From Elusimicrobiota bacterium (lineage in GTDB: Bacteria; Elusimicrobiota; Elusimicrobia; UBA1565), in NCBI GenBank assembly GCA_016212885.1, contig JACRDO010000132.1, positions 28,779 to 92,778 on the forward strand: a DNA stretch of 64,000 nt, given 5' to 3'. A program made the translations under genes and the position numbers. The notes beneath the pieces are model-generated. The model worked only from the letters and a program-made list of their open reading frames with translations, was not told the DNA's origin and did not search any database. Positions 15,001 through 38,641 of this stretch are shown piece by piece (positions within the stretch are counted from its first letter, which is position 1; the number at the start of each line of letters is the position of its first letter).

Positions 15001-17077
15001 CTCCATGACCGCGGTCGGAGACCACGCCGTGGGGGCCGCCATCAACGCCCCCGGCCTGCTGGCCGTGGCCATGCCCAACAGCGTATCGAGCGACAACTTC
15101 CCGTTCGCGTCGGCCGCCTCGAGGGTCGTCACCACACGCGCGGACCTCTTCGTCGTGGGCCAGAACAAGGCGCCGGGCATGCTGATACAGGGCGCCACGA
15201 ACCAGGTGATGCTCAGCCTTCAACTGAGCACGACGGAGCATGCCATCCTCTGGAGCGGGCTCACCGTGCGCTCCTTGGGCACGGCCGCGGACTCGGACAT
15301 CAGCAGCGTGCACATATGGAAGGACGTCAACGCAGACGGCTTCCTGGAGGCGGACATGGACCAGGACATGACCTCCGGGCTCAACGGATTCCTGGGCGGG
15401 TCCGCGGTTGTAAGCCTGATCACCGCGCAGACGATCAGCATGGCTCCCATGCGCTACCTCGTGACGGTGGACGTGGCCAGCTGCGCCTCGCCCTCCGCGA
15501 GCTTCGGGCTTACGCTGGCAGCGACGAACGCCTTCTCCGTGAACGCCCCCAACACGGTCGTGGACTCAGGCTTCCCGATCTCGTCGGTCGTCGTCTCGCT
15601 CAAGAAGAGGGCGGAGCAGCTTCTCGTTTCGCCCTCGGACCTCGTGCCGGCGACCGGGATCAACCAGGGACTCGAGGCCTCCGTCGCCAAGCTCGCCTTG
15701 AGAGCCTCGCGCAACAAGGTGGGCTGGACCCAGGTGAGGCTCGCCCGGATCGGGACCCTCAGCGATTCGGACATCGAGGAGGTCCGCCTCTATCGCGACG
15801 AGGACGCTTCCGGGGCCCTCAGCCCCGCGGATATCCTCATCGGCGCCGGAACCTACAACTCGGGCTCGGCGTCCATCGTGTTCGCCCCCGCCTTCGTGCA
15901 GACGATCACCCTCTCGACCCAGACCTACCTCGTGTCCTACAAGATCAAGCCCTCGGCGACCGTCAATGCCGTCGTCGGGCTCACCGTGGCAGAGTTCACG
16001 GTCGACAACCCGGACAGCGTCTCGCTGACGGGCCTTCCGTTCTCGACTTCGCTCGCGAAGATCCTCGATTCCCGAACGCCGAGCCGGCCCGTCGTGACGG
16101 TGGCTGACGGCGCGTTCAGCAGCAAGTCCGAATACCTGCAGTTCAACTGGCAGTCGAGCGTAGTGCTCGGGTATCTGGCGGGCGCCTTCTACGCGATCGG
16201 AACCACCACGGGAGGGACCGACTTGACGAATGGCTTCAAGCCGATCCGGGTCTCTGAGCTCTCCGTCCGAGCGACGGGCTTTGTCTTGCAAGACCAAACG
16301 ATGTACTACGTCTCCGTGAAGACCCAGTCGAACGAAGGCTGGTTCAGCCCCGTAGGCACCTCGAACGGGGTCTTCATGGACTTCGTCATCCCGCCGACCC
16401 CCGCGGCCAAGATCCACCCCCCCGGGGAGAGCACGCTTCGGGTCAGCTGGGGCTCGGTGACCGGCGGGCTCTCGGGCATCGCCGGCTACCGCATCGAGTA
16501 CCGCCGGGCGCAGAGCCCCGTGTGGTACAACGCGAAGACCAAGCAGCCGATTTCTGAAACCGGAGTCTCGGCAGCCGGAATGGGCGGGAAGGGGCTGCGC
16601 GCCGCGGCTGTCTCGCCCGATGAGCTCGTCACCGGAGTCTCGTACCAGGCCACCGACATGCCAAGCGGAACATTGTACGTGCGCATGCGCGCGTTTTCAA
16701 CCGCGGGCCTGGCCAGCGCGCCGACCGACCCGGAGAAGGTCCAGATGGGGCCGCCGGGGACGGCGGCCATCAGCCAGATATCCTGCGCTCCCAACCCGTT
16801 CGACTCTCGAACAAAGCATGGGTGCATCGTGTACACCCTCAGCCAGGATGCCGACGTGACCATCAGCATCTTCAATGTCTTCGGCGGCCTAATTAAGACC
16901 ATGTCGTATTCGGCCGGGTCCGCCGGCGGGCAGAAGGGGACCACAGATATCACGGCCTGTCCGGTGTTCTGGGACGGGACCGACGAGTCGGGACAGAAGG
17001 TCTCCAAGGGCATCTATCTGGCGGTCATCCAGTCCGGCGGGGCCAAGGAAATCCTGAAGATCGGCGTCATCCACTAG
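1..17077 (+). CDS. Giant cell-surface repeat protein (adhesin-like), 5'-partial (>5686 aa). Domain order: Kelch repeats; FN3; two tandem FG-GAP + ASPIC/UnbV-like blocks each followed by FN3; four LamG (ConA-like lectin) domains; a YDG-type beta-propeller; about 12 tandem Ca-loop beta-sandwich repeats; FN3; T9SS-type / FlgD-Ig-like C-terminal sorting domain.
   Basis: Single uninterrupted ORF 17..17077 in frame 2. The first Met is inside a Kelch repeat unit (MTTARySLAAAA-GKVYAVGG recurs 5 times), so the gene continues upstream of the window. Recurrent AWGDYDNDGxLDLAV motifs (FG-GAP/VCBS-like), W(Q/H)HxAxTY..LY.NG motifs (LamG), a GRLYAG...IYxYDG propeller, and LGTxxDSDI...Y.D.N.NG.xD repeats. 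C-terminus is APNPF...WDGTDESGQKVSKGIYLAVIQ...KEILKIGVIH, typical of the T9SS CTD / FlgD Ig-like fold. Confidence 0.9.
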   Translation, partial: AAKAAMTTARYSLAAAALSGKVYAVGGMGGTQKENEEYDPAANTWASKALMTTARNSLAAAAVGGKVYAVGGTGGTEKENEEYDPNVNTWASKTAMTTARSGLAAAAVGGKIYAVGGSGPSGANEEYDPATNGWTSKTALTIARSGLAAAAVGGKIYAVGGTNGVVLSSAAEYDPGSNTWSARAQMPTARQQLALAATGGKLYALGGIGGANNENKEYDPGFSQKFTGLTPNTLYTFKARGRNASGAETPETPAISTYTLALAPGGLVAASSFTNVASTGVRVNWSSGTPAGYNPIGTLYRLELATAASFTTLAGSSQTYNTYAGLTGLTPSTKPYFARVEAISGAGIPTSWLSLGSLSSGTLQVTISTFAGTAGNSYAIAWGDYDNDGNPDLAVANYGLNILLLRNNGNGTFAQSTILATAGNYTGIAWGDTDNDGLLDLAVAVNVGDEFILHNDGGGAFTPNTLTGSGGNSYAVAWGDYDNDGRLDLAVANDLAQDDYVARNNGNGTFAIVPLTQTLGNSRGIAWGDYNNDGYLDLAIGNTDKDVVIVRNNNGVSFSTFAVTGSGFANGGIAWGDYDKDGYLDLAFALNTGIVVLRNNGGDGTFAKNTISAPGSNAGVAWTDYNGDGRLDLAVSRSGGQAQILLRNDGGVSFTTVTFAGSAGGAVRGFSLGNFDLSGGPDIALANDGGSDELLLHNDDQLAHAAPGAPSAGFSATLQEYSLFSSSGILALSWGNGTDAETSTAALRYLLRIGTTVAGSSTTCKIPAKFGLDAGASGGSFLYSTRISSAAAGLRLILQKETTVYWAVMTQDGEGLRSAESAEQTAFLAAPGLVTDLRVSAIVSTGLGASSMTVTLQWTAPGDNGYSGAITNGAFEIRCSTTEAILSTSAYAAAQVAVSLATSVVPGALQTHSIPYLNAAATHYFALTMKDGFGARSALSNPATAQSYVLRLPASAGNLYGLAWGDYDGDGRPDMALSYYGGSVVLMHNDGSGAFTQTTVPGTSGSNTGVAWGDFNSDGRLDLAVAVDGSDEYVLRNNGDGTFTNVPVTGSGGRSYAVAWGDYDNDGLLDLAVANETAQDDLIARNNGNGTFTLVPLTQTIGNSRGAAWGDFNNDGFLDLAIANTDKDVVLARNLGNGTFSTGTIGGTGVSTAAAWGDYNNDNYLDLAVANSDGVALMRNKGDGTFAKVWIAGTAGNNAGLAWADFNNNGFLDLLVSRPGGSAQLLLRNNGDGTFTQTLLPLPGSNVVNVSWGDFDADGDLDIAAGSRGWIDAFIFRNDAALAHNAPAAPVSGFSATFQEYAAFSSTGVLTLSWGDASDVETPTSALNYLVRAGTVVSGSSATLKIPFNYGLDGAAGGGSFPYGTRVSALQRGLKFAGFSKGATIYWAVAAEDGEALRSGESAEQTANLTPPASVNNLAAAQDAAVETSSVSWVRLTWTVPGENGTSNPLLPGARYDLRWSTVAPVALESDYNRAPNQSLIPADGESPGATHTQLLAVTAGKTYYFAMTTLDSCNSRSGLSNAANIPMTAWLQEVITDAAPPAALQGDTTAFLKLRLWTNLGSLSWTKLRVRKLGTLPDAAVKNVAIYGDANTNGIFDSGDTAALYSGVPAVFASSAVTLAVQTVGQTISNSTRTYFLTLQLEPSYLPQDGSTAALKLDGEAFSVIGGGVLGTDFPGLLLDGIDDRVRASDSAVLDPPNQITLDAWVRTTDPGPNRSIITHSNASGTDGYRLWLNGSTCGAGVPTLFIGPSVLCANRGGSPVSIADDRWHQVSAVYSIAGGLGQLMFIDGEMLSTGPVTGSISDSASELGVGGPNNYAGNYLNGKIDEARISQTARYTSSFIPWRRSDTDYNTVLQYHFDAMDGTGTVVTDAAGQVTGILDGQARGYGRSTATVVVDAQDMMMSSATSLLPDTLYRNAVNVPVLKLQLWASQDNVIINRLSVAQTGTGASAGVANLRLYRDNGDGYFQPTLDQSLTLGQVFSVNKATFDLLGATPPAPQQVWSSTKTYFVVWDVTGGAETGKSLGLAISTDDFVLAGATDAVSTAAFPLRASTVPVVSARVYVTPETPPSAWVNVSSLVFIGDFTLGNVDHFYYLFDQNPGTQINGGGSETLWTIGKATATATADGSSWYFHVRAFDYLGQGGTQTDFGPYFVDRTRPTGASFVHFNSTGGALGQSQVNDLAQPVTAQLSVQDSGAGLNVVGPAPLAPSPGTVSLWRLDDTSGAVWKDSGPASISLSSVGVVSRGAGRFGSGVLLAGSGDLRSASPAGLPTGAVPRAIEAWINPVSTQGTLGLVSWGTSGAGTLMRFSMVSGQLAADMGGITVSGGPVLSTGVWQHAAFSYDGSAARLYLNGALAASQSVGALATALGTLFIGATESGGRFWGSIDEVRIMNSALADGQVYDDCTRGHPYFVAFSSSAGSSWQVVVATGAGAGARVGLDGAHGSTGPQTLKVKGLPLNVSTSSAAGALATNQVIFYQTDRAGNTNILGPYGILVDTNPQVAYSTPILPGDGMYTGARPWFEWTGPSTAITAGMGGANGLGGSFYLQVSSNDPTFADPNIVLSISTPAIMGDNTLPKVYGVYLSTHSLGEGATYYWRIRSKSFLDVLGPWGPWKSFVVDASTPAAANYRMYSATGGVVLEGQYTDLMLGVTAQTTVTDNLSGFSKSFRFDPAAGTVALWHFSERDGLAPKDASGNNNTAALLGISGGPPGYRTSPFGAGLRCGGSHVFRTSNAQFDFPANSNMTFEAWVNPDDVSGIQALGGVGSVTFPGGNWLLRISDGRLFFSNNTGFINSPAMMSAGVWQHIAMTLRGARVAFYINGVQVAAGLSGSGGNSGGPSVQPFTLCAAVDNDGVTYQSPYSGMIDEVRVLNYAADPLQIAADYAATLSGIYAVEYSTTAGASWIVVSATAPASGWAHLELGGSEGSVGPEAWSVRNLQLVHSTSAAIGYQATNQIRFSVPDRAGNTRLSGPYAAIVDTTVAAAVSTPSYPANGAFLTQQPNFLWSGPSTKTASGMGLAASYFLEAAADPAFASPVISISTPVIIQSTFAAATFGAYLSTYTLMDATTYYWRVRSRDFLGLLSPPLSVSSFVTDLGAPAGSAFRSFNSTGGATAEDLVNNLTSNVTAYVTFQDPGSGLKVSPAAGAMPFGVIYSTTGGAGNSAWVDGGRTAEGGLPESWWDPTVATITALATFQSRLYAGAAGPGRTFEYDGTQWSQSGTFPSDVLTLKEFRGKLYAGLSGGSVYSFDGISWNLAASLPAARVNALAEHNGRLYAATGAEGQIFAFDPDAGGWYEVFRATEPEFFSLKSYNGRLFAGAGPDIYSFDGSTWTVTNWIGGSARAFEVYRGRLYAGTNISGYIYAYDGSVWTRPLDISEDFNRALGVFGGRLYLGASLPSNGRIYMYDGNTGPGGLLVYTLPTPADSIYAIASYGNRLYLGGTSPSGAKVYVSTPLAVSLTGLDGAKTPEQLKITGLNPIQSVNANICNGNWACTATNQVRFTAADQAGNIGQAGPFAILVDPSLSPPTALYPPSGSFVRSSSPTFVWAESSAMSIHNVQVSSQAAFTNLSLDSIANTPAYTSPVALANATTYYWQVRSRSPSGIYSAFSAVNAFVMDLSRPTTSVFLHFGSTGGPLAESQFGNLAAGVTVEITLQDIVSGLDRGPRRQPVSGAAALYPFDEGFGMYASGLGGEYRLAFSSGASWAPGLISSAVLTGGATYLYNASPNYNPAWPAVGLPIAGGTRTIEAWIYPLDGQGGGILHYSDFRLHISGSCSGPVPGNSYLCVNASQGAAYTFTPSQWHHVAYTYAGGTHTLYADGILLGSFQQMLNTPGAGPIFVGTATDCGAFRGRIDELRILAKALSAAEVDSGYRLSGAFRVSYSSDGGANWTVVTATAPAWGPHLVLSGPPGSTAPQTLRLENFSLAQSTILATGAYGTNQVVFSVSDQAGNEATAGPFTVLVQTSVPQPILTSLTPRSTESIFATAIATDPLSGVMEYRFEASPNKTFAPPVSTSPWVAVSTYLPTALLGWASASSYTFTGLASATTYYVRVTVHDNLSNLSPPSDVGKVAGFAVDAATSTYGSVFFSTKSVAPASALQNTDVAMLKFMLATPLGSSSQFYSLTVRKTGTAPDAAMQKALIAIDNNGDGIYTKGVDAVLAEAPFTNSVATLSLAAAGNSENLGPALKTFFIAYRVTTDAQPGLTVGVDNITEADFGLQFPSRAEGPFPTNVPLIPIADGPNALTVTAFNLAPAEVQPNTLNVALLRLSAATDTGTSIISTMTWRLQASQPFNQLTGLTLWRDKNGNGLFEPGIDERVTSGNDSFTNGYSTMALTTPEISSRTVKTSAVNYFLSANVSASAPQGTTFRIALSTPPDVRLENPLDTVSFTQIPIITSSCTIIQNNIVWISTTDLSPGAYGQTYFQGNLYSVLRATLSVDIGFAEINQVTMDRTGDAQQDDVQYVAVYRDQNLDGGPLNPVVDVFLGSAMFDPLKKATIDITTATVAAGATTVFFIAYQINPAASPGRTLGGSMTNSSYFHTSNPASVVSSVTMDGSSLFEIKTATAQIEATQNQMKIPLAQSAAPGAIDQVANDIGMLRVDMVSDRNNFNWLSLIVRSIGTALDSDVRNVRVFRDDGNGLFSASSDTAISDISQTFTGGQVNIPLSIPQAVTGSTQTYFVTLSLNPSAVPGRTVGVVIPSTASFNVSSPNKVSSQTALGPFAGGPVAINQFANTIAVSTRGITPPLGAVPGARNVGLLDLTLKTNVSNAGWAGLKIDQAGSASDSDITEVKVYYDLNNSGFFDPANTQQYLLVSSTGQRFGQVQAGSVDIVFPSTPSLGPAPQRYFVAVDLADDATPGKTVALRAISKDYFVPVAPNQFGPVSFNSQPPMDQVEIKAPPALMYVLGTSSAPAEVAQGTANVVMAALKVWMSSYTGQWTQLSVDRSGAGIDSDISGVKLFYDTNGNGRLDVMTDERISTASFIGGTAALMFSTQTITTSSRTYYLTYDLSMTAVGDHAVGAAINAPGLLAVAMPNSVSSDNFPFASAASRVVTTRADLFVVGQNKAPGMLIQGATNQVMLSLQLSTTEHAILWSGLTVRSLGTAADSDISSVHIWKDVNADGFLEADMDQDMTSGLNGFLGGSAVVSLITAQTISMAPMRYLVTVDVASCASPSASFGLTLAATNAFSVNAPNTVVDSGFPISSVVVSLKKRAEQLLVSPSDLVPATGINQGLEASVAKLALRASRNKVGWTQVRLARIGTLSDSDIEEVRLYRDEDASGALSPADILIGAGTYNSGSASIVFAPAFVQTITLSTQTYLVSYKIKPSATVNAVVGLTVAEFTVDNPDSVSLTGLPFSTSLAKILDSRTPSRPVVTVADGAFSSKSEYLQFNWQSSVVLGYLAGAFYAIGTTTGGTDLTNGFKPIRVSELSVRATGFVLQDQTMYYVSVKTQSNEGWFSPVGTSNGVFMDFVIPPTPAAKIHPPGESTLRVSWGSVTGGLSGIAGYRIEYRRAQSPVWYNAKTKQPISETGVSAAGMGGKGLRAAAVSPDELVTGVSYQATDMPSGTLYVRMRAFSTAGLASAPTDPEKVQMGPPGTAAISQISCAPNPFDSRTKHGCIVYTLSQDADVTISIFNVFGGLIKTMSYSAGSAGGQKGTTDITACPVFWDGTDESGQKVSKGIYLAVIQSGGAKEILKIGVIH
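1090..4600 (+). repeat. Internal tandem duplication inside the giant gene: two consecutive units of about 1.75 kb, each encoding about 10 FG-GAP repeats, an ASPIC/UnbV-like module and an FN3 domain.
   Basis: Near-colinear protein blocks. Example: AWGDYDNDGRLDLAVANDLAQDDYVARNNGNGTFAIVPLTQTLGNSRGIAWGDYNNDGYLDLAIGNTDKDVV compared with AWGDYDNDGLLDLAVANETAQDDLIARNNGNGTFTLVPLTQTIGNSRGAAWGDFNNDGFLDLAIANTDKDVV. The HNxxxAHxAPxAPxSGFSATxQEY...YWAV..DGEALRSxESAEQT module occurs at about nt 2090-2470 and again at about nt 3840-4210. Confidence 0.8.
12180..16060 (+). repeat. Array of about 12 tandem beta-sandwich repeats of about 110 aa inside the giant gene, each with a DxNxNGxxD calcium-binding-like loop (CARDB/Calx-like adhesin repeats).
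   Basis: Periodic recurrence of the motifs ...LS(V/L)xRSG(T/A)..DSDIxxVK(L/V)(F/Y)xDxNxNGxxD...TYY(L/V)T... Confidence 0.7.
16790..17077 (+). other. C-terminal sorting domain of the giant protein (T9SS type A CTD / FlgD Ig-like).
   Basis: Last ~95 aa: ISCAPNPFDSRTKHGCIVYTLSQDADVTISIFNVFGGLIKTMSYS...CPVFWDGTDESGQKVSKGIYLAVIQSGGAKEILKIGVIH. It carries the (Y/A)PNPF start, the WDGxDxxGxxVxxGxY core and a Lys-rich beta-strand end. Confidence 0.65.
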
Positions 17078-17168: not shown

Positions 17169-17186
17169 CCGCTAAACTAATAGCGG
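17169..17186 (+). promoter_or_regulatory. Inverted repeat CCGCTA-aactaa-TAGCGG (6-bp stem, 6-nt loop) 10 nt upstream of the ATG of the PorV/PorQ-like gene. It overlaps the only purine-rich (GGGGA) candidate Shine-Dalgarno sequence and may control translation initiation.
   Basis: Read directly from the sequence ...tccgCCGCTAaactaaTAGCGGggacggactATG. It sits in a 118-bp AT-richer intergenic spacer after the giant gene. Confidence 0.3.
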
Positions 17187-17195
17187 GGACGGACT

Positions 17196-18773
17196 ATGTT
17201 CGCAAGGTTTATTCCATTGGCGCTTCTGGCTCTGGCGCTGCGGGCCTCGCCCGCGTGGGCCCAGGCGATCGGAGGCCAGCCCGGCGAGATATTCTCCTTC
17301 GGGGCCGGGGCCCGGGCGCTCGCCATGGGCTCGGCCTACACGGCCGTGGTCAACGACGTATCTTCGGTCTACTACAACCCCGCCGGGCTCGGGCTTCTGC
17401 CGGCGCGGGAGATCTCCCTCATGCGGGCGTTCCTCTACGGGGATGCGACCTACGACTACATCGCCTACGCGCAAAACAACCGCAAGAACGCCGGCGGCTG
17501 GGGCGCCGAGTTCATCCAGTTCAAGGTCGGCGGGGCGAGCGGGCGCGACCAGGACAACAACGAGACCGGGCAGTTCGGCTACTCTGAAAGAGCCTTCGGC
17601 CTCGCGGCAGCCTGGCGCGGGCTCCTGCACCCGCGGCTCTCCCTCGGCGCCAAGGTGAAGATGATGCAGCGCGGCTTCAGCGGCGCCGGCAACGCCGCCT
17701 CCGACAGGCTCTTTGGCATCGACTTCGGCGCGCAGATGGGGCCGTGGGTCGGCGAGCGCCTCATGCTCGGACTCATAGTGCAGAATGTGATGGGCTTCAA
17801 GCAGGGCGACACGGAGGATTCCCTCAAGCTGCTGCTGCGCCTCGGCGCGGCCTACAAGGTCATCGGGCCGCTCTCCGTCGCGGCCGATGTCTCCAACAAC
17901 AGGGAGTTCCGCGTGGGGACGGAGTACTCCATCGGGTTCCTGGCTCTCCGGGTCGGCCTCGCCCAGCAGGGCATGACCTTCGGCGGAGGGCTGCTCTTCA
18001 AGAACCGTTATTCCGTGGACCTGGCGATGCTCAACCATCCGACCCTCGGCATGTCGCAGAGGATCTCGCTCGGCTACCGGTTCGCCGGCGCCGCGGGCGC
18101 GGGCGAGAAGTCGAAGAAGATGCGGTTCTACGCCGAGGAGTTCCTCGCCAACGCCCAGGCCGAGCTGAAGAAGAGGAACTACCTCAAAGCCCTCAACGAC
18201 TTCTCCGCCGGCCTCGGCATCGACCCCAAGCGCGGGGCCGAGTGGCGCTCGAAGACCGACCGCCTGCGCCGGCTCCTCAAGCGGATGGGCCTCGAGGCCC
18301 ATCCGGAGGACAGCGCCACGCTCGCAGAGGACTCGCAGCCCGCCGTCGTAGCTTTCGCGGCCATAGAATCCTACATGGGCCGGGAGGAGGAGCGGGCGAT
18401 GACTCTGGCCCACGCGGCGGTCGGCCTGGATACCGCCAAGGGCGCCTTCGGACGGCTGCTCGACTCGCTGGCAGCGCTGACGGGACATGCGATCCAGCGC
18501 GACCAGCTCCTGCCGCCGCTGCGGCTGGCGGAGTTCAAGATGAAGCGGGCCATGGACGCCATCTATGCCCGCAGGTTCGAGGCGGCCGTGACCCTGCTTC
18601 GCGAAGCCCTCTGGCTCGACCCCGGCAACGTCATGGCCTGGACCCGGCTCGGCTCGGCCTTCTTCGCCTCCGGGGACCGCCCGAAGGCCGCGGAGGCGTA
18701 CCGAGAGGCGCTCCGGCTCAACCCGGCCGATGAGAAGCTGAGGCAGTTCGTCAGGTCCCAGGGGTTGGAGTAA
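17196..18773 (+). CDS. Outer-membrane PorV/PorQ-family-like beta-barrel protein with a C-terminal TPR repeat domain (525 aa).
   Basis: Signal peptide MFARFIPLALLALALRASPAWAQ. N-terminal hallmark GARALAMGSAYTAVVNDVSSVYYNPAGLG (the PorV/PorQ/FadL-like motif G.R.LAMGGAY.A..D.SA.YYNPAGL). Alternating beta-strand pattern to about residue 305. C-terminal ~220 aa is TPR-like (AWTRLGSAFFASGDRPKAAEAYREALRLNP). Lies directly 3' of a CTD-bearing giant protein. Confidence 0.6.
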   Translation: MFARFIPLALLALALRASPAWAQAIGGQPGEIFSFGAGARALAMGSAYTAVVNDVSSVYYNPAGLGLLPAREISLMRAFLYGDATYDYIAYAQNNRKNAGGWGAEFIQFKVGGASGRDQDNNETGQFGYSERAFGLAAAWRGLLHPRLSLGAKVKMMQRGFSGAGNAASDRLFGIDFGAQMGPWVGERLMLGLIVQNVMGFKQGDTEDSLKLLLRLGAAYKVIGPLSVAADVSNNREFRVGTEYSIGFLALRVGLAQQGMTFGGGLLFKNRYSVDLAMLNHPTLGMSQRISLGYRFAGAAGAGEKSKKMRFYAEEFLANAQAELKKRNYLKALNDFSAGLGIDPKRGAEWRSKTDRLRRLLKRMGLEAHPEDSATLAEDSQPAVVAFAAIESYMGREEERAMTLAHAAVGLDTAKGAFGRLLDSLAALTGHAIQRDQLLPPLRLAEFKMKRAMDAIYARRFEAAVTLLREALWLDPGNVMAWTRLGSAFFASGDRPKAAEAYREALRLNPADEKLRQFVRSQGLE

Positions 18774-18811: not shown

Positions 18812-21331
18812 TTGAGCGGTGACATGGACGCTGTCATCATCGTCCTGATCCCGGTGCTGTTCCTGACGCTGGCGGCCAGCATGCTGGTCGTCAGCCAGGT
18901 TTCCGGCTTCTTCCAGTCCAACAAGTACTCCCGCAAGCGCCAGCAGGACCGCATGGAGATCCAGCGGTTCATGGCCCAACTGGCCGGCGCGCAGAGCCAG
19001 GTCTTTGCGCGCAGCAAGGAGCTCGAGCGGCTCTCGGCGAACCTGCAGCTCAGCAACCAGGAGCTGGCCCGGCTCAACAGCATGAAGACGAAGTTCCTGT
19101 CGATGGTTGTCCACGATATGAGGACCCCGCTTGCCTCCATCAAGGGGTTCGGCGAAATGCTCAGCCGCCAGACGCTCCCGGCGCAGCAGACGAAGTATGT
19201 GAACTATATCGTCAGCGGCACGGACCAGATCAACCAGCTGATGGCCGACCTCACGGACCTCGCGGTCATCGAAGCAGGCAAGCTCAAAATGGAAAAGCAG
19301 CCATTCGCCTTGTCCGACATGGTCAATGACCTCGTGCCCGGGATTGGCCTGCAGGCGCAGAAGAAGGGCGTGATTTTCACGGCGCCGGAGCCGCCGCGGG
19401 GGATCACCGTAATCGGGGACAGCTTCCGTCTGCGCCAAGCGCTCCAGAACTTCCTCACCAACGCGGTCAAATTCACCCCCGCGGGGGGAAAAGTCGAGCT
19501 GAGGGTCAGCGTGGGCCCGCGGGGCGCGCTGTTCCAGGTCAAGGACACGGGCCCGGGCATCCACGCCTCCGAGCGCAAGCGCATCTTCGAGAAGTTTTAC
19601 CAGTCGCAGTTCGGGGACCCGAAGGCGCGCCAGAAGGGCTGGGGGCTCGGCCTCTCGATCGCGCAGGAGATCATCCGCTCGCACCAGGGGGAGATGGGGG
19701 TGGATTCCGCCGGGCTCGGCAAGGGCGCCACCTTCTGGTACCGCATCCCGCTCAAGCCCTCCAGGATGGCGGCCTACGCGCTCGCAAAGACCGCGGCGGC
19801 CGTCCTCCTGCTGGCCCTGCTCCTGCCGGGGGCCCGGGCCCAGCAGACGCTCCCGATCGAGGAGAAGGCGAAGTTCGAGAAATCCCTCGAGGACCGCGCC
19901 AACACGATCCTGCTCCACATCCTGGGGCCCAACCGCGGGCGTGTCGTAGTCGACGCCACGCTCGACTTCACCCGCATCGAGAAGTTCGACGTCAAGAGCG
20001 GAGCCGTATCGCCTGACCGGGAGACCCTCTACCTCTGGGAGAAGGTGGGAGCCCAATCGGGCGGCCAGGACCTGCTCCCGGGCATCCCGCCCCAGGAGCA
20101 GCTGCCGAACGCGAACCTGGCGCGCTCCTACGAGCGGCAAAACTCCTTCCCGACGGCCTTTATCAAGAGACTCAAGGTGACGGTTATCTTGGACGGCGCT
20201 GTCGGCGCCGACCAACGCAAGATCATCACGGATGCCCTGACGGAGGCTCTCGACCTCAAGAAAGATCGGGGAGTGGATGCAAACGGCTTCACGCTCAAAG
20301 ACGAAATGCTGATCGTTCCCGCCACCTTCGCCCCCGCATGGAAGACGGTCTGGTACACCCCGGAATCCGCAAGCCTCCTCTTCAAATACGCGCTCATCAG
20401 CCTGATGACGCTGATCACCCTCATCGTCGTCGCGGCCTGCTTCCTGAAGCTCGCGGAGGCGATGGACTCGATGGCGCAGGCGCAGGCCCATCAGCTCCAG
20501 ATGGACTTCGGCCAGCAGGGCGCCGACCTCGCCGGGAAGGAAGAGGAGGAGAAGAAGAAGAAGGAGGAGGAGGCCAAAGCCGAGAGCGCGGAGGCCGCCT
20601 CCACCAAGATCGTCTTCAACGTCAAGGTGGAGCAGATCGAGACGCTCATCGAGATGGTGCGCAGCCAGGACGCGGAGAACATCTCCCTCATCGCCGCGCA
20701 CCTCCCGCCCGACGTCAAGAAGGCGTTCCTGGCCAAGCTCCCGCCGAGCGTCTACAGCGAGGTGATCTTCTATCTCGGCCGCGTGCGCTTCATCGACCAG
20801 GAGGTTGTCTCCACCGTCAAGGACGAGCTGGAGCGGCGCCTGGAGAGCGCGGTCGGCGGCCGGTCGAACCTCCTCGGCATGATCGAGGCCTCGGACCTCA
20901 AGTCCAAGCGCGAGCTCCTCAAGCTGCTCGAGGAGCGCGACCCCGACCTTGCGCGGCAGCTGCGCGAGCAAATCCTGCTCTTCGAGGACCTCTCGGACCT
21001 CGAGGAGAAGGACTGGTCCTTGGTCTTCTCGGTCGTCACGCTCGAGGAATGGGCCTTCGCGCTCTACGATGCCCCGGAGGATCTGGTCGAGGCGCTCAAG
21101 AGCCAGATGCTTCCGAAGACCTGGGCCATCCTGTCCCAGATGATGCAGGTGGGCCGTCCCTCGGAAAGGGCCATCGAGGAGGCGCACGAGCGCATCGTCA
21201 ACTCGGTCTGGAAGCTGGTTCAGGACGGCCGCATCACCAACCCCATCACCCGCCGCATCGAGCGCATGGCCGCCCGGCCGAAGGAAGAGGGCCCTCCCCC
21301 CTTGGTCGAGGGCGCCGCGGAGCTGGGCTAG
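18812..21331 (+). CDS. Fusion protein (839 aa): N-terminal TM helix + sensor-less histidine kinase (HisKA + HATPase_c) - TM helix - ~180-aa periplasmic domain - TM helix - acidic/Lys-rich linker - FliG middle and C-terminal (motor torque) domains. Overall FliF-FliG-like topology.
   Basis: H-box SMVVHDMRTPLASIKGFGEML. N/G boxes FLTNAVKFTPAGGKVELRV...DTGPGI...GWGLGLSIAQEII. Hydrophobic helix AAAVLLLALLLPGARA. Periplasmic segment with KVTVILDGAVGADQRKIITDALTEAL. Second TM LLFKYALISLMTLITLIVVAACFL. EEEEKKKKEEEAKAE linker. FliG_M-like ENISLIAAHLPPDVKKAFLAKLPPSVYSEVIFYLGRV. FliG_C-like LLFEDLSDLEEKDWSLVFSVVTLEEWAFALYDAPEDLVEALKSQMLPKTWAILSQMMQVGRPSERAIEEAHERIVNSVWKLVQDGRI (compare FliG ...FEDI..LDDR.IQ..LREVD...LALALK....EL.EK...NMS.RA...L.ED.E.LGPVRLKDVEEAQQKIIN..R.LEE.GEI). 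No stop codon separates the kinase and FliG parts. The ATG at 18824 is an alternative start. Confidence 0.75.
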   Translation: MSGDMDAVIIVLIPVLFLTLAASMLVVSQVSGFFQSNKYSRKRQQDRMEIQRFMAQLAGAQSQVFARSKELERLSANLQLSNQELARLNSMKTKFLSMVVHDMRTPLASIKGFGEMLSRQTLPAQQTKYVNYIVSGTDQINQLMADLTDLAVIEAGKLKMEKQPFALSDMVNDLVPGIGLQAQKKGVIFTAPEPPRGITVIGDSFRLRQALQNFLTNAVKFTPAGGKVELRVSVGPRGALFQVKDTGPGIHASERKRIFEKFYQSQFGDPKARQKGWGLGLSIAQEIIRSHQGEMGVDSAGLGKGATFWYRIPLKPSRMAAYALAKTAAAVLLLALLLPGARAQQTLPIEEKAKFEKSLEDRANTILLHILGPNRGRVVVDATLDFTRIEKFDVKSGAVSPDRETLYLWEKVGAQSGGQDLLPGIPPQEQLPNANLARSYERQNSFPTAFIKRLKVTVILDGAVGADQRKIITDALTEALDLKKDRGVDANGFTLKDEMLIVPATFAPAWKTVWYTPESASLLFKYALISLMTLITLIVVAACFLKLAEAMDSMAQAQAHQLQMDFGQQGADLAGKEEEEKKKKEEEAKAESAEAASTKIVFNVKVEQIETLIEMVRSQDAENISLIAAHLPPDVKKAFLAKLPPSVYSEVIFYLGRVRFIDQEVVSTVKDELERRLESAVGGRSNLLGMIEASDLKSKRELLKLLEERDPDLARQLREQILLFEDLSDLEEKDWSLVFSVVTLEEWAFALYDAPEDLVEALKSQMLPKTWAILSQMMQVGRPSERAIEEAHERIVNSVWKLVQDGRITNPITRRIERMAARPKEEGPPPLVEGAAELG

Positions 21332-21334: not shown

Positions 21335-22459
21335 ATGGCGGAGAAAGTCGACTTCCTTCTCGCCTCCCTGCGCGGCCAGCCACCGCCCGAGGCCCCGCCG
21401 TCCGTCGAGGCCCAGGCGGCTGCGGCCGCCTCGGAAGAGCAGCTCGCCCCTCTGCGCTCGAAGGTCGAGGAGCTCGAGCGCAAGCTCGCCGAGCTCTCGG
21501 CGCCGCCCGCCCCGCCGGAAGGCGCGGAGGCTCCGGCGGAGCCGCCCAAGCCGCCGACCGAACTGATGATGTTCCTGCACACGCGCATGGAGCTTCTCGA
21601 GCGCCGCCTGGAGCTCGCCCAGCAGGAGGCCCTGCGGGCCAACCTGGTCCTCCGCGAGCGCGAGGAAGCGCAGAAGAAGGCCCAGGGCGAGGTCGAGGAG
21701 CTCTTCCGCTCGATCCGCGAGCAGGAGCGCTCGGCCCGCTTCGACCGGAGGCTGCGCGAGCAGTACTCCGCGACCCACTCCCGCGTGGAGGAGCTGGAGG
21801 CCCGGCTGGCCATGGCCCAGCTGCGCATGGTCCCCGCCGACGAGGTTCTCCGGTCTATCGAGAGGGAGGAGGGCTTGGGCGAGCTCCGTTCCCGGCTGAA
21901 GGAGCAGCTTTCAAGGATGTCCGGGGGGGAGCCGTCCGTCGGCGCCCCGGCGCCGGCCCCGCCCCCAGCGCCTCCGGCAGGGGCCCCGGACCGGCCCGAG
22001 GGACCCGCACGGCCCGCGCAGGACGCCCCGTTCAACTATAGCGAGCTTCCGCCCCTTTCCATCGTGACGGCCAAGATCGCCGATCTTGAGCTTCGGCTCG
22101 CGGAGGCCGAGAAAGCCCGCGAGAAGGAGCGCCAAAGCCGCCTCCTCTGGGAGAACAACGTCCTTCAGGCGCTCCGGCAGTCCTCCGGCCGCTGGCAGAA
22201 AGCCGGCGGAGCCGGGCTTCTGGTGGAGGCGACTTTGGAGAGTATGGTAGAGTTGCTCAAGAAGAGGGACCTCCTCGCCGGGGAGACGGCTCAGATCCTG
22301 GACAGGCTCCGGTCCGAGCCGCCGGGCTCGGGGGAGGAGCCCCTCCTGCGGGCGCGGCTCGCGGAGCTGCGCAAGAGCATCGAAGAGCTCCAGGGCGAGC
22401 TCGACAAGAAGATGGCGATCGTCAACGCCTGGACCGAGCGGAATAAAGGCAAGGATTAA
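21335..22459 (+). CDS. Coiled-coil protein with Pro/Ala-rich low-complexity segments (374 aa). Possibly a FliH-like or scaffold component of the adjacent motor genes.
   Basis: ORF starts 3 nt after the FliG-fusion stop and ends 1 nt before motA (TAAATG). Heptad-rich segments (LRSKVEELERKLAELS, LELAQQEALRANLVLREREEAQKKAQGEVEEL, IADLELRLAEAEKAREKERQ). No recognizable catalytic motif. Confidence 0.5.
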   Translation: MAEKVDFLLASLRGQPPPEAPPSVEAQAAAAASEEQLAPLRSKVEELERKLAELSAPPAPPEGAEAPAEPPKPPTELMMFLHTRMELLERRLELAQQEALRANLVLREREEAQKKAQGEVEELFRSIREQERSARFDRRLREQYSATHSRVEELEARLAMAQLRMVPADEVLRSIEREEGLGELRSRLKEQLSRMSGGEPSVGAPAPAPPPAPPAGAPDRPEGPARPAQDAPFNYSELPPLSIVTAKIADLELRLAEAEKAREKERQSRLLWENNVLQALRQSSGRWQKAGGAGLLVEATLESMVELLKKRDLLAGETAQILDRLRSEPPGSGEEPLLRARLAELRKSIEELQGELDKKMAIVNAWTERNKGKD

Positions 22460-23897: not shown

Positions 23898-24593
23898 GTG
23901 CGCGCGCTCATCCTAACGGCGGATAACGCCTTTGCCCTCAGGCTGACGGGCCTGCTGAGAGGCCTGGGCTTGTCTGTCGATGTCCTCCACAGCCTCTCCT
24001 CGGCCGCGGCCAGGACCCGCTGCGAGCTGGCGGTGGTGGATTGGGACGCGGTCCGCTCCGGGCCGGCCCAGGCCCTCCCGCGCCTGCGCGGCTTGGCGTG
24101 GAGGGTGGTCCTCCTGGCAGGGGCCGATGTCGTCTATGGGCCGCAGATGGCCGAAGCGCTCGCCTGGGGGGTCTGCGACGTCGTCTTGAAGACCCTCAAG
24201 GATCCGGCCCTGGCGGGCCGGATCGCGGCTCAGCTTAAGTCCCGGCGCTACTCGGCGATCGAGCCGCGAGGCTGCGGATTGCGGCTGGACAAGGCGGCCC
24301 GGCGGGTGTGGGCGCGCCGCGGACGCGGCTGGAAGGAGATCCCCGCCCTGCCGCCCAAGGAATTCGATCTCCTGTGCGCCTTCTTGGAGCACCCGGGGGC
24401 GGCGCTCCGGCGCGCGGCCCTCCTGGAGCGCTTCTGGCCCGGGAGATCCGGCGACGTCAACCCGGAGACCGTGGACCGGCACGTCCAGCGGCTCAGGCGC
24501 CGGCTCGGGGCCGTCGGGTGGCTGATCGTTTCGGTGCGCGGCGTCGGCTACCGCTTCAGTTTAGGAGAGAGTCCCCATGACAAACGCGGATGA
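23898..24593 (+). CDS. OmpR/PhoB-type winged-helix transcriptional regulator with an atypical (possibly pseudo-) receiver domain. GTG start.
   Basis: C-terminal Trans_reg_C motif LPPKEFDLLCAFLEHPGAALRRAALLERFWPG...VDRHVQRLRRRLG...VSVRGVGYRF. The N-terminal receiver-like fold keeps a candidate phospho-Asp (LAVVDWD) and a Lys (VVLKTLKD) but lacks the N-terminal acidic DD pair. Confidence 0.7.
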   Translation: MRALILTADNAFALRLTGLLRGLGLSVDVLHSLSSAAARTRCELAVVDWDAVRSGPAQALPRLRGLAWRVVLLAGADVVYGPQMAEALAWGVCDVVLKTLKDPALAGRIAAQLKSRRYSAIEPRGCGLRLDKAARRVWARRGRGWKEIPALPPKEFDLLCAFLEHPGAALRRAALLERFWPGRSGDVNPETVDRHVQRLRRRLGAVGWLIVSVRGVGYRFSLGESPHDKRG

Positions 24594-34222: not shown

Positions 34223-34864
34223 CTACCGCTCCAAGAAGCCCGGCACCTCCCGGATGTCGTCTAGGACCGGGACACCGCTCCTCACCAGCCGGTGCTTGGC
34301 CTGATAGCCGCGCGCGATGAGCGCGCAGCCCACTCCCATGGCCCGCGCGGTCTCCAAGTCATGCACGGTATCGCCGATCAGGATGATCTTCTCCGGCTCT
34401 ATGCCGCAGGAGCGGATCCAGCTCGCGCCCAGCTCCACCTTGCTGCCGGCGTGGTAGTCCCCCAAGCCGAGGACCGGGTCGAAATAGTCCCGGATATTGA
34501 AATGGACCAGCGCTTTTTCGAGCATCTCGTGCTTGTAAGCCGATAGGATGCCCTGCTGAATTCCCTTGCCGCGGAGCGTCTCCAGAACGTCCGCGGCGCC
34601 CTCGTGGAGGCGGCCTTCGGCCCAGATGCGCTCATGGTAGAGCCCCGCCCATTCGTTCGCGGGGACGTCGAAAGGCTCCACGCTGAAGTCGAAGCCGATC
34701 TTCCGGTAGAACTCGATGACGGGGAAGTCGAAGTTCTCGAGGTAGTACTCCAGGGGGACCTCGGGCATGGAGCGGCGCCGGCGCATCGCGTTGAGGCACT
34801 CGAGGCAGAGCCGGGCGTCGTCGAGGAGCGTGCCGTTGAAGTCCCAGATGACGCGCCGGATCAC
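34223..34864 (-). CDS. HAD-superfamily hydrolase (phosphoglycolate phosphatase-like), about 213 aa.
   Basis: Motif I VIWDFNGTLLDD. Motif IV IGDTVHDLETARAMGV. GTG start overlapping the stop of the upstream GGDEF gene (GTGA). The Arg/Pro-rich upstream part of the 462-aa ORF is treated as non-coding. Confidence 0.75.
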   Translation of the reverse strand: MIRRVIWDFNGTLLDDARLCLECLNAMRRRRSMPEVPLEYYLENFDFPVIEFYRKIGFDFSVEPFDVPANEWAGLYHERIWAEGRLHEGAADVLETLRGKGIQQGILSAYKHEMLEKALVHFNIRDYFDPVLGLGDYHAGSKVELGASWIRSCGIEPEKIILIGDTVHDLETARAMGVGCALIARGYQAKHRLVRSGVPVLDDIREVPGFLER

Positions 34865-35826: not shown

Positions 35827-35853
35827 GCGGGAAGGGTAGCATATTTGCTTAAA

Positions 35854-35883
35854 TTGACAGGCTTTTTCGGTTATTTGTAGAAT
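35854..35883 (+). promoter_or_regulatory. Sigma70-like promoter for the atp operon: TTGACA, 18-nt spacer, TAGAAT.
   Basis: aaaTTGACAggctttttcggttatttgTAGAATtg, read directly. Lies in the AT-richer gap between the divergent GGDEF gene and atpZ, about 20 nt upstream of the atpZ ATG. Confidence 0.5.
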
Positions 35884-35904
35884 TGTTTCGCTTTGTTTTT
35901 TGCC

Positions 35905-36129
35905 ATGAACGATGCCCGACAGCCGCCCCGCCGCAGCGCATGGACCGCTTTTGGGGCCGGAACCGAACTGGTCGTTTTCGCCCTGGCGGGTTTTTTCGCG
36001 GGCCGCTGGGCGGACAGCCGGTTCGGAACGCAGCCCTGGCTGCTTTTGGCGGGCACGCTTCTGGGCATCTGCCTTGGACTCTATCAGTTCATCCGAGAGA
36101 CGGTTATCGCTAAGGACCGCGCTCCGTAG
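35905..36129 (+). CDS. AtpZ/AtpI-like small membrane protein preceding the ATP synthase genes (about 74 aa).
   Basis: MNDARQPPRRSAWTAFGAGTELVVFALAGFFAGRWADSRFGTQPWLLLAGTLLGICLGLYQFIRE fits the AtpZ pattern (W..G.EL......G...D..FGT.PW..L....LG...G.Y..IR). The TTG at 35893 is an alternative start. Confidence 0.5.
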   Translation: MNDARQPPRRSAWTAFGAGTELVVFALAGFFAGRWADSRFGTQPWLLLAGTLLGICLGLYQFIRETVIAKDRAP

Positions 36130-37568: not shown

Positions 37569-37578
37569 GCGGCGAACG

Positions 37579-38636: not shown

Positions 38637-38641
38637 AACCC

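Follow-up and report, generated by a model that had tools for sequence, protein, structure and literature searches.

What does a histidine kinase do at the head of a protein that continues, without a stop codon, into segments resembling the flagellar rotor components FliF and FliG, and is the join between them real? These questions are raised by a locus in 64 kb of DNA from an uncultured Elusimicrobia bacterium, the whole of which is referred to here as the window. A preliminary description, made from the sequence alone, had read the product as a kinase built into a flagellar-type motor. No published description of a kinase–rotor fusion system was found, nor was any cultured organism that carries one.

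Architecture of the fusion

The features assigned to the fusion gene were as follows.

18812..21331, + strand: kinase–rotor fusion (histidine kinase, FliF RBM3, FliG M + C); uninterrupted ORF of 839 aa with a TTG start
18824..18913, + strand: TM1 of the kinase, residues ~5-34
19082..19756, + strand: kinase core, HisKA/DHp plus HATPase_c (Pfam), with phospho-acceptor H101
19766..19837, + strand: TM2, counterpart of FliF TM1, residues 319-342, ~3 residues past the end of the catalytic domain
19838..20365, + strand: periplasmic FliF RBM3/beta-collar-like ring-building domain, residues 343-518
20366..20476, + strand: TM3, counterpart of FliF TM2, residues 519-555
20627..20854, + strand: FliG middle (ARM_M) domain, FliG_M at residues 611-681
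20861..21274, + strand: FliG C-terminal domain with the torque helix (residues 766-783), FliG_C at residues 706-809

The protein thus reads, in order, TM1, a coiled coil, HisKA and HATPase_c, TM2, a 176-aa periplasmic RBM3/collar domain, TM3, a linker, FliG_M and FliG_C, with HATPase_c ending at nt 19756 and TM2 starting at nt 19766; the NCBI annotation places the start at the ATG at 18824 rather than the TTG at 18812, giving 835 aa. Hydrophobic segments at residues 1-34, 319-342 and 519-555 agreed with the topology first proposed, in which one N-terminal TM helix is followed by two more bracketing a domain of ~180 aa, and the fusion is accordingly predicted from its sequence to be a three-pass inner-membrane protein with the kinase tethered to the membrane at both ends.

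The fusion was retained in at least 46 full-length Elusimicrobia orthologues of about 37–78% identity (43–78% when measured over the whole protein), and because of this conservation a missed stop or frameshift is excluded and the original claim of a single polypeptide free of internal stops stands. The idea that an assembly or sequencing error had merged two genes, one for an ordinary kinase and one FliF/FliG-like, could draw on relatives in which the two are truly separate; however, the 46 orthologues, assembled independently from different samples and studies, hold one frame across the junction, while the GC3 of the fusion ORF (0.91) was like that of neighbouring genes and the GC content at each codon position was even along its length. 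An artefact is effectively refuted by the fused orthologues, and its probability is negligible.

The kinase and its candidate partners

Both catalytic regions of the kinase scored well above their Pfam cut-offs, HisKA at residues 91-156 (E = 1.3e-16; 60.8 bits versus 26.9) and HATPase_c at residues 202-315 (E = 2.6e-25; 89.5 bits versus 26.4). An alignment of 47 sequences demonstrated that H101 in the motif VVHDMRTPL was invariant, as expected of the H-box of a HisKA-type (class I) kinase, as were N217, D245, G247, G276, G278 and G280 of the N, G1 and G2 boxes. Judged by these residues, the fused HisKA-type kinase should be catalytically intact. Only TM1 and the coiled coil precede HisKA, in line with the initial observation that the kinase has no extracytoplasmic sensor domain. 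TM1 was modelled (full-length model) as part of a single unbroken helix running into DHp (residues 4-119), and carries P14 in 47/47, S28 in 44/47 and Q29 in 38/47 sequences.

A minimal N-terminal TM segment passing directly into the DHp helix, with no periplasmic sensor and with the signal presumably supplied by a partner membrane protein, is also characteristic of intramembrane-sensing kinases of the LiaS/BceS-like type. Unlike those, the present kinase has as its partner a flagellar-type ring subunit within the same polypeptide, and a further TM helix comes immediately after its catalytic domain. The FlgS/FlgR flagellar checkpoint two-component system of Campylobacter jejuni (PMC3760246, PMC7064773) provides a second parallel, FlgS being likewise a kinase without an extracytoplasmic sensor that is linked to FliF/FliG: it is in physical association with the FliF/FliG multimer and responds to it (PMC3760246, PMC7064773), FliF/FliG multimerisation being what it senses (PMC3760246). 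However, FlgS is soluble, is made as a separate protein and passes its signal to a sigma-54 activator of the flagellar hierarchy, whereas the present kinase is membrane-anchored, is either joined covalently to the ring subunit or made from a gene overlapping that of the subunit, and occurs in a non-flagellar context. By analogy with FlgS, it is plausible that the fused kinase reads or controls the state of the rotor.

Candidate partners for phosphotransfer were encoded at two positions in the window.

23898..24593, + strand: OmpR-family DNA-binding regulator with a degenerate receiver (Trans_reg_C, 2.5e-18); ends the operon
34861..36216, - strand: response regulator–GGDEF protein, a bona fide response regulator about 11 kb from the module

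The OmpR-like protein gave no Response_reg match in Pfam, and among its orthologues the Asp was retained in most while the acidic pocket, Thr and Lys were not conserved; it is an uncertain candidate for the output regulator of the kinase. The GGDEF protein is, by virtue of position alone, a weak alternative candidate: in about nine Elusimicrobia loci its gene lay no more than a few kb from the module, and it also adjoins a conserved ATP synthase operon.

The FliF-like and FliG-like segments

When the window protein was scanned with the Pfam model YscJ_FliF_C, residues 369-487 matched below the cut-off (E = 0.0018; 19.2 bits versus 23.8). PF08345 matched 44 of the 47 orthologues (best E = 1.1e-9), and a family profile matched FliF chains in the PDB (6scn, residues 241-439; 9yh6, E = 6e-6). 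Foldseek comparison of the AlphaFold model of residues 343-520 (pLDDT 78) returned FliF RBM3/collar domains as all of its top 18 matches (E = 4e-7 to 2e-5; probability 1.0). Profiles and model together indicate that the weak match of the window protein is genuine, and the FliF-like membrane segment previously proposed, with its TM pair at residues 319-342 and 519-555, is borne out. RBM1 and RBM2, which in flagella form the inner M-ring and house the export gate, were absent, the 176-aa periplasmic segment being wholly taken up by RBM3.

Both FliG domains exceeded their Pfam cut-offs (FliG_M, E = 2.2e-8, 34.6 bits versus 25; FliG_C, E = 2.2e-16, 60.5 bits versus 23.3), were modelled with pLDDT ~90 in the full-length model, and were recovered by the family profile in T. 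maritima FliG_MC (1lkv; E = 5.6e-24), so that the presence of FliG M and C is confirmed. Between TM3 and FliG_M there was just a disordered linker of ~50 residues, low in complexity and rich in acidic residues and lysine, that extends to about residue 600 (residues 566-596 having pLDDT < 50 in the full-length model). Against full-length FliG (3hjl) the profile covered only residues ~107-326, and PF14842, applied as a test for FliG_N, matched in 7/47 orthologues, in which it is assumed to fall on the homologous ARM_M repeat. With alignments that begin near FliG residue 107 and a disordered linker preceding FliG_M, the suggestion that FliG_N is lacking and has given way to direct fusion also holds, and these sequence comparisons support the view that the covalent link stands in for the contact between the FliF tail and FliG_N.

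At the FliM-binding site, EHPQ was replaced by a family motif, (Q/E)-D-(P/A)-E-N, the positions reading (Q/E)(D/E)(P/A)(E/A) over the 47 sequences, while the R of EHPQR was retained as R/K in 47/47. The Gly-Gly hinge (G682-G683) was invariant, in distant subfamilies as well. In the torque helix of the window clade, K769 (at the R281 position) and W771 were conserved, and Q/M occupied the positions of EcD288/D289.

The stator and its predicted interface with the rotor

The remaining genes of the operon lie on either side of the fusion, in the order giant surface protein, barrel plus TPR protein, fusion, coiled-coil protein, MotA, MotB and OmpR-like regulator.

17..17077, + strand: giant secreted/surface protein, > 5686 aa, its 5' end beyond the window
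17196..18773, + strand: outer-membrane barrel of the PorV/PorQ (FadL-like) type with C-terminal TPR; 525 aa, signal peptide
21335..22459, + strand: cytoplasmic coiled-coil, proline-rich protein, function unassigned; 374 aa
22460..23197, + strand: MotA/PomA-like stator A subunit, flagellar type; 245 aa
23201..23881, + strand: MotB-like stator B subunit, flagellar type; 226 aa, with plug, channel Asp and OmpA-type PG-binding domain

MotA matched MotA_ExbB (4.4e-22) and MotA_N in Pfam and a PomA model (4.7e-43), aligned over its full length to solved MotA/PomA (E = 2e-32), and had the four TM segments, MotA_N and PomA-like torque loop of the 'FIT' stator class (PMC12505986). MotB matched MotB_plug (4.2e-8; 33.1 bits versus 24) and OmpA (5.8e-22; 78.3 bits) in Pfam, and its channel Asp, within YGD[ML]MSYLMI, was invariant among 19 orthologues. 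By sequence, therefore, this is a flagellar-type stator and apparently a functional one. MotAB homologues also operate outside flagella in Zorya, and MotB did match ZorB models (E ~1e-25), a match attributable to generic MotB/OmpA homology; but PADLOC gave MotA no ZorA match, the protein has no long ZorA tail and aligns end-to-end with flagellar MotA, equivalents of ZorC/D are lacking, and the module occupies a chromosomal neighbourhood of conserved synteny, beside housekeeping genes, rather than a defence island. That the module serves anti-phage defence, of the Zorya type or any other, is hardly credible.

In the window clade MotA has Q in place of R90 and R in place of E98, and so does not keep the conserved R90/E98 equivalents, while MotA of distant subfamilies keeps K/R and E/Q there. 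Across subfamilies (48 loci), charge classes at the positions of EcMotA R90/E98 co-varied with those of the EcFliG D288 region: there was no clash in pair 1 and one in pair 2, and the opposite-charge pair occurred in both orientations, a pattern that favours a contact between rotor and stator. The complementarity score was 50 versus 16 +/- 6 for shuffled partners, none of 2000 shuffles reaching 50, in a comparison that ignores kinship, and the co-variation may represent perhaps two or three events only. Because the canonical interface charges are absent in the window clade, it is not certain that torque would arise there by the textbook mechanism.

Putative surface-protein partners and the flagellar comparison

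The giant protein contained Kelch, FG-GAP, LamG, fn3 and GEVED domains, and its last ~100 aa (nt 16628-17074) resembled T9SS C-terminal sorting domains, matching the PorU tail (E = 2e-9), FlgD_ig above the cut-off (3.5e-7) and TIGR04183 below it (E = 7e-4; 19.5 bits versus 23). Upstream of the module, its C-terminal ~400 aa were conserved both in Elusimicrobia loci and in the distant loci L030 and L032. The barrel plus TPR protein matched NF033709 PorV_fam below the cut-off (E = 1.3e-22; 80.8 bits versus 90) together with TPR_1/2 and UPF0164 (Pfam); a homologue immediately precedes the rotor gene in almost every Elusimicrobia locus and in 37/40 distant ones, the homology being full-length in L030, L031 and L032. 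A counterpart of the coiled-coil protein, which matched nothing in Pfam or the PDB and lacks both TM segments and a signal peptide, always followed the rotor gene, with lengths in relatives of 374 to 1855 aa.

Several of these features recall the T9SS and gliding machinery, in which GldLM/PorLM is, as predicted for the present motor, a proton-driven member of the MotAB superfamily: the operon encodes a FadL-like barrel resembling the PorV/PorQ/PorP type and, as with SprB, a repetitive surface protein of very large size whose C-terminal domain is T9SS-like, while the neighbours of one relative (L036) matched CHU_C and PorP_SprF above the cut-offs (30.3 bits versus 22.3 for the latter). By way of contrast, the motor of the operon comprises true MotA/MotB and a predicted FliF/FliG ring instead of GldL/GldM; the window ORFs scanned with Pfam and NCBIfam gave no match to GldL/GldM, GldK/GldN, SprA/Sov or PorU, nor was PorZ seen there; the sorting-domain (TIGR04183) and PorV matches fall below curated cut-offs; and the host organisms lie outside the Fibrobacteres-Chlorobi-Bacteroidetes group.

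Resemblance to the flagellar core is likewise partial, the canonical interface charges being altered in the window clade. The RBM3/collar fold between two TM helices is homologous to that of FliF, the FliG middle and C-terminal domains and their Gly-Gly hinge are retained, the stator pairs a MotA carrying MotA_N and a PomA-like loop with a MotB that has plug, channel Asp and OmpA domain, and the covalent FliF–FliG link mimics engineered fusions that are functional and for which structures have been solved (PDB 8z4d). With these hallmarks, and with FlgS-type kinases known to monitor flagellar rings, the fusion might be taken for a divergent but true MS-ring/C-ring rotor, with its other flagellar genes located at a different place in the genome. 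Against this stand the missing domains that would house an export gate, the periplasmic part of 176 aa only and the unconserved EHPQ motif. Furthermore, neither FliM/FliN nor any gene of the export apparatus, rod, hook or filament turned up in Pfam and NCBIfam scans of the 64 kb window, no further flagellar gene was present in about 30 related loci of 20 kb, and the conserved partners are instead the PorV-like barrel and giant proteins bearing a C-terminal domain, alongside the kinase. Cultured Elusimicrobia have been described as non-motile. Since RBM1/2, FliG_N, the FliM-binding motif and neighbouring axial and export genes are all lacking, the machine is not regarded as a flagellum; a flagellar rotor is decidedly improbable, and the flagellar-motor framing of the preliminary description has been abandoned in view of an operon in which MotA/MotB accompany a barrel and a giant protein whose tail is T9SS-like.

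Distribution of the module and possible role of the kinase

Kinase and rotor are separable. In three loci (L002, L003 and L024) the kinase is encoded on its own by a gene that overlaps the rotor gene by 4 nt, and in others (L014, L018-L021 and L023) the order is kinase, MotA, rotor. A kinase-less FliF–FliG core with the same neighbours was found in Ca. Saganbacteria, Nitrospirota and many metagenome lineages, so that with Elusimicrobiota the core spans at least three phyla; MotA/MotB were within the flank in 16/26 distant loci only. The FliF–FliG fusion is a trait of a broad multi-phylum family, to which the kinase is an Elusimicrobia addition.

These observations bear on a reading in which the whole assembly is a signalling device: the FliF/FliG ring with MotAB would sense proton-motive force or envelope state without performing external mechanical work, stator engagement deforming FliG and the TM helices and thereby switching the kinase to control how the giant adhesin and nearby genes are expressed. 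Such a role would suit a kinase with no other sensor domain, an unusually conserved TM1, a catalytic domain within ~3 residues of TM2 and an operon that terminates in a regulator gene; moreover, no periplasm-spanning shaft that would carry ring rotation to the outer membrane is evident, which also weighs against the mechanical machine favoured below. However, a multi-subunit ring with stators would be a costly sensor, and most of the wider family comprises rotor, MotAB, barrel and giant protein without a kinase, the core function therefore being independent of signalling. A pure signalling device is considered unlikely, while retaining more weight than the flagellar and defence readings.

The explanation favoured here, with a confidence somewhat better than even, is a non-flagellar, proton-driven rotor–stator machine tied to the giant surface protein and equipped with a hard-wired kinase sensor. 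FliF S-rings are 33-34-mers, and by analogy many copies of the fusion may assemble through RBM3 into a ring, which would present FliG_C to proton-driven stators of the MotA5B2 type, encoded by the MotA and MotB genes downstream of the rotor gene, so that proton-motive force could push or rotate the ring. Because the barrel and the giant protein with its T9SS-like tail are co-encoded with the motor, the motor would energise surface-protein handling, supplying mechanical energy to export, anchor or move the giant protein in the manner of GldLM. The kinase, as with FlgS in Campylobacter, would most likely be a checkpoint or load sensor of ring assembly or motor state: assembly of the ring or engagement of the stators could bring or twist adjacent DHp/CA domains into an active arrangement, and the active kinase would then transfer phosphate to a response regulator. 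Taken as a whole, the operon suggests an envelope machine, not previously described, that is driven by ions and carries its own sensor.

Integrity of the fusion gene

The ORF listing placed an uninterrupted reading frame with a TTG start at 18812-21331 (+), the 839 aa product of which is identical to the NCBI protein 'HY922_12930 [Elusimicrobia bacterium]' (P0001); the NCBI start is the ATG at 18824, with a GGTGA lying 4 bases upstream of that ATG. The codon-position GC of the ORF (0.64/0.39/0.91) agrees with that of the adjoining genes in a window of ~66% GC from an Elusimicrobia metagenome-assembled genome (MAG). The preliminary description had read this gene as a histidine kinase continuous with a FliF-like membrane segment and the FliG middle and C-terminal domains, and the combination of ORF, Pfam and hydropathy analysis recovered all of these elements where it had placed them.

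Segments of the fusion protein
Residues 1-34: membrane segment (TM1, hydropathy)
Residues 91-156: HisKA (Pfam)
Residues 202-315: HATPase_c (Pfam)
Residues 319-342: membrane segment (TM2, hydropathy)
Residues 369-487: YscJ_FliF_C (Pfam, sub-threshold)
Residues 519-555: membrane segment (TM3, hydropathy)
Residues 611-681: FliG_M (Pfam)
Residues 706-809: FliG_C (Pfam)

As the kinase and FliG parts are cytoplasmic, the intervening segment 343-518 (176 aa) is placed in the periplasm.

A missed stop codon or frameshift, which would split the ORF into an ordinary kinase and a separate FliF/FliG-like gene, was the alternative to a genuine single reading frame. With residues 325-839 as the query, 58 close relatives were retrieved, almost without exception from Elusimicrobia MAGs of many different studies, and the 46 that were full-length (808-876 aa) preserved the same HisKA-HATPase_c-(FliF)-FliG_M-FliG_C order at identities of 37-74% over residues 325-839 and 43-78% over the whole protein. 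Since such an error cannot recur across independent assemblies, a sequencing artefact was ruled out and the fusion accepted as genuine. The two parts also occur as separate genes with a 4-nt overlap, a kinase of 323-327 aa and a rotor part of 537 aa, in the protein P0034 and its relatives (loci L002, L003 and L024), while in a divergent clade (L014, L018-L021, L023) the gene order is kinase, MotA, rotor. Such a pattern of fusion and fission is classic evidence that the kinase and rotor parts work together.

The FliF-like and FliG-like parts

The periplasmic segment carries the ring-building RBM3 fold of FliF. The Pfam family PF08345 matched 44 of 47 orthologs (best E 1.1e-9), and the family profile matched PDB FliF chains, including residues 241-439 of Salmonella FliF. 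A model of residues 343-520 (pLDDT 78, core >90) gave Foldseek matches of which the best 18 were all to the FliF RBM3/beta-collar (S-ring) at E values of 4e-7 to 2e-5 and a probability of 1.0, with PrgK and SpoIIIAG ranking after them. Homology to canonical FliF is thus clear, but the 176 aa of the segment leave no room for either RBM1 or RBM2, and because both are missing the protein fails as a canonical FliF.

Equivalent analysis of the C-terminal part matched the family profile to FliG_MC of T. maritima (E 5.6e-24) and established the Gly-Gly hinge (G682, G683) as invariant. FliG_N, as had been suspected from the outset, is missing: the alignment begins at around FliG residue 107, and the AlphaFold model places only a disordered, low-complexity linker of ~50 residues between TM3 and FliG_M. 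A hidden FliG_N was considered in view of FliG_N Pfam matches in 7 of 47 orthologs, and rejected given the predicted length and disorder of that linker. In place of the FliM-binding motif EHPQ the family has its own (Q/E)-D-(P/A)-E-N, the Arg of EHPQR being retained as R/K. Despite its clear homology to canonical FliG, the protein therefore fails as one, because FliG_N, the EHPQ motif and a FliM/N context are all missing. A different natural switch-protein fusion, from an unrelated family, was recorded in the 610-aa Spirochaetia protein P0065, which combines FliG_M, FliM and FliG_C Pfam domains.

The kinase part

The kinase is intact, all of its catalytic residues (H101, N217, D245, G247, G276, G278 and G280) being invariant in 47 sequences. 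No PAS, HAMP or periplasmic sensor domain was detected in the kinase part of the fusion protein. In the full-length AlphaFold model (mean pLDDT 77), residues 4-119 form a single unbroken helix that spans TM1 and a coiled coil and continues into the DHp domain, and conservation within TM1 is unusually high (P14 in 47/47, S28 in 44/47 and Q29 in 38/47 sequences); these features follow the pattern of an intramembrane-sensing kinase. Since only ~3 residues separate the end of the catalytic domain from TM2, the membrane anchors the kinase on either side.

A comparable sensor-less kinase, FlgS of C. jejuni, co-precipitates with and is activated by multimerised FliF/FliG (PMC3760246). The association of FlgS with FliF/FliG is non-covalent, whereas in the present protein it is hard-wired by covalent fusion.

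The operon and its surroundings

The fusion gene lies within a non-flagellar operon-like module of seven genes that share one orientation and are spaced 0-119 nt apart.

Genes of the module, in order
17-17077: giant surface protein, >5686 aa, extending past the window start, its true length lying beyond the window
PorV/PorQ-like barrel protein, 525 aa, with TPR at the C-terminus
18812-21331 (+): fusion protein
21335-22459: coiled-coil protein, 374 aa, proline-rich
MotA, 245 aa
MotB, 226 aa
23898-24593: OmpR-family regulator, atypical, with no Pfam match for a receiver domain

In the giant protein, Kelch repeats, 13+ FG-GAP repeats, fn3 and GEVED domains and several LamG domains are accompanied by a FlgD_ig/T9SS-like tail. 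The last ~100 aa of the protein resemble the C-terminal sorting domains of type IX secretion (T9SS) cargo, including the tails of PorU (E 2e-9) and PorZ, and scored 19.5 bits against TIGR04183, below its cut-off of 23. The barrel protein matched PorV_fam at E 1.3e-22, its score of 80.8 bits falling short of the cut-off of 90.

MotA aligned end to end with solved flagellar MotA/PomA structures (E 2e-32), PomA being the best-matching model, and MotB exhibited a plug above the gathering cut-off, an OmpA domain and the invariant channel Asp, the channel thus being intact. By the criteria of PMC12505986, the sequences place the pair among flagellar-type stators and not with the generic ExbBD/TolQR-like kind.

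The coiled-coil protein has no Pfam, NCBIfam or PDB match, and neither a TM segment nor a signal peptide was detected in it; a PADLOC match to LmuB was dismissed as coiled-coil noise. Counterparts are present in the relatives' loci L001 (12502-14550), L065 (9911-12160), L036 (9941-13270) and L042 (9766-15333). In every case the rotor gene is followed by a gene for a cytoplasmic protein of 374-1855 aa, with a proline-rich N-terminus and coiled coils, that belongs to no database family. This protein may bind the conserved FliG_M surface as a partner.

The adjacent OmpR-like protein was not accepted as the cognate regulator of the kinase, its receiver being degenerate: the phospho-acceptor Asp is present in most orthologs, but conservation does not extend to the acidic pocket, Thr and Lys positions. 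It is thus an atypical regulator, possibly a phosphorylation-independent one. Zorya and other defence systems were rejected by a PADLOC scan of the operon, the lack of a ZorA match indicating that the operon is not Zorya.

Other window ORFs scanned code for an MFS transporter, an amidohydrolase, an RR-GGDEF protein, F-type ATP synthase, RecG, RelA/SpoT and LpxB, and no flagellar or T9SS core genes were found among them. Two additional genes break up the F-type ATP synthase operon (36175-44275): one for an NAD-dependent epimerase (40389-41519) and one for a PilZ protein (c-di-GMP receptor; 42510-42857), the latter separating the gamma from the beta subunit gene. The RR-GGDEF gene (34861-36216, -) lies just upstream of this operon, and the RR-GGDEF/HEAT/ATP-synthase arrangement recurs in relatives L002 and L003. 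Four large ORFs with coding-like codon bias lack a significant Pfam match: 30527-33283 (-), 52807-54567 (+), 54564-56192 (+) and 48226-49518 (-).

Co-variation at the canonical rotor-stator interface positions

In the window clade, MotA (VQxxG..ALR) has Q at the position of E. coli R90 and R at that of E98, and hence lacks the textbook charge at both, while FliG (MLPKTWAIL(E/S)QM) has Q/M at the positions of D288/D289. Co-variation was assessed in 48 distinct loci drawn from all subfamilies. K/R at the MotA R90 position coincided with an acidic residue at the FliG D288 position in 26 of the 48 loci, both positions were uncharged in 17, and no clash was recorded. For the second pair, E at the MotA E98 position is matched by K/R at the adjacent FliG residue in 13 loci, and R/K at that MotA position by E in FliG in 12 loci, with a clash in one locus. 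The resultant complementarity score of 50 compared with 16 +/- 6 for shuffled partners (0/2000 reached it), the shuffle ignoring phylogeny, so that a handful of events may account for the co-variation. Even so, a conserved physical contact would be expected to leave just such a reciprocal exchange of charges precisely at the canonical MotA-FliG interface. The fusion protein plus MotAB were rated, from their sequences, as kin of the flagellar-type ion-driven rotor-stator.

Distribution of the module and kinase-less relatives

A scan of species-representative genomes detected 26 loci, all from Elusimicrobia except for one contig (L029, 1-9455) binned as 'uncultured Curvibacter sp.', which carries a fragment of an Elusimicrobia-type kinase/FliF gene (82% identity) and is probably mis-binned. 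On contigs of sufficient length the recurring set comprised the giant-protein C-terminal region, barrel+TPR protein, kinase, rotor, coiled-coil protein, MotA and MotB. A profile run against 1.84 billion representatives yielded 124 clusters below E 1e-30, which split into at least eight subfamilies; many have lengths of 470-700 aa and cover RBM3, TM and FliG_MC, the kinase being absent. A word-indexed search with a divergent family profile returned 10 proteins, with little new beyond the protein P0218.

Representative loci beyond Elusimicrobia-type modules
L030, Ca. Saganbacteria: FlgD_ig-tailed protein, barrel+TPR, fusion, MotA, LysM protein
L031, metagenome: TPR protein, fusion, MotA, MotB
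L032, metagenome: 9602-aa giant protein, TPR protein, fusion
L033, Nitrospirota: fusion, MotA, MotB, MotB, TPR protein

In L030-L032, the barrel+TPR and giant-tail proteins proved genuinely homologous to their window counterparts. In L030 the place of MotB is taken by a 173-aa LysM protein (5271-5792); L033, assigned to Nitrospirota from a PyrD 94% identical to that of a named MAG, has tandem MotB paralogs (12238-13571, n=2).

The largest distant subfamily, A5 (L034-L111; e.g. L065, 7911-9833), has an extra TPR domain at the C-terminus and more canonical interface residues (MotA 'AKKEGFLALE', FliG '..LLKEEME'). A metagenome scan with A5 gave 78 loci, the sampled loci L036, L042 and L065 having GC contents of 41%, 55% and 67%. 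Among loci with sufficient flank, a barrel+TPR homolog lay immediately upstream of the rotor gene in 37/40, a giant-tail homolog was present in 16/32, and MotA plus MotB were located within 8 kb downstream in 16/26. In L036 the genes downstream of the fusion gene (9941-17199) encode an unknown protein of 1109 aa and a soluble, kinase-like HATPase_c protein of 319 aa, together with two proteins whose Pfam matches exceed the cut-offs: one of 550 aa that carries a CHU_C domain for T9SS sorting, and a PorP/SprF protein with a coiled coil and LysM.

These recurring neighbourhoods define a core of FliF/FliG fusion, MotAB and outer-membrane barrel/TPR protein, usually accompanied by a giant CTD-bearing protein, and its tight linkage to barrel and giant surface proteins extends over more than one phylum. 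As judged from the loci recovered, the core spans several phyla and the covalent kinase is an Elusimicrobia elaboration.

A possible envelope machine

The favoured reading is that the fusion subunits would assemble into a ring, that MotAB would turn or push it, and that the work would be spent on the giant surface protein, a motor role functionally like that of GldLM in T9SS and gliding. By analogy with C. jejuni FlgS (PMC3760246), the kinase would then sense ring assembly or motor state. The proposed machine has no obvious periplasmic shaft. It shares the cargo-tail and barrel theme with T9SS, but not the defining core genes of that system, and no T9SS translocon was seen among the window ORFs scanned. 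We advance only tentatively, and with slightly less than even confidence, the proposal that the fusion protein is the signalling-equipped form of a new class of envelope machine widespread across phyla, in which a flagellum-free FliF RBM3-FliG_MC ring plus MotAB supplies the power to export, anchor or move giant surface proteins by way of PorV/PorP-like outer-membrane barrels. If so, it would constitute a second, independent drive for a T9SS-like or gliding-like process; alternatively, it may be a rotor-stator relic or offshoot with a bearing on the origin of the flagellar motor. No description of the module was found in the literature searched, including a paper on MotAB evolution and a giant-genes preprint, and neither that preprint nor an Elusimicrobia genomics paper mentions Mot or FliG genes.

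The fusion protein would offer a compact target for cryo-EM, with a predicted ring, rotor and kinase within a single chain. To our knowledge, FliG-MotA torque generation has hitherto been held specific to flagella. If FliF/FliG and a flagellar-type MotAB can operate where export apparatus, rod and filament are all missing, the rotor-stator core would be self-standing and redeployable. This bears directly on an old question of flagellar motor evolution, whether the rotor-stator pair predates the type III export core or existed independently of it. The kinase fusion would likewise serve as a natural 'Rosetta stone' for the notion that kinases sense the assembly of a motor ring, or its mechanical state, which has so far been based on the non-covalent FlgS-FliF/FliG association. 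For the handling of giant surface proteins in diderm bacteria, the module suggests a new energy route, parallel to that provided by GldLM in type IX secretion.
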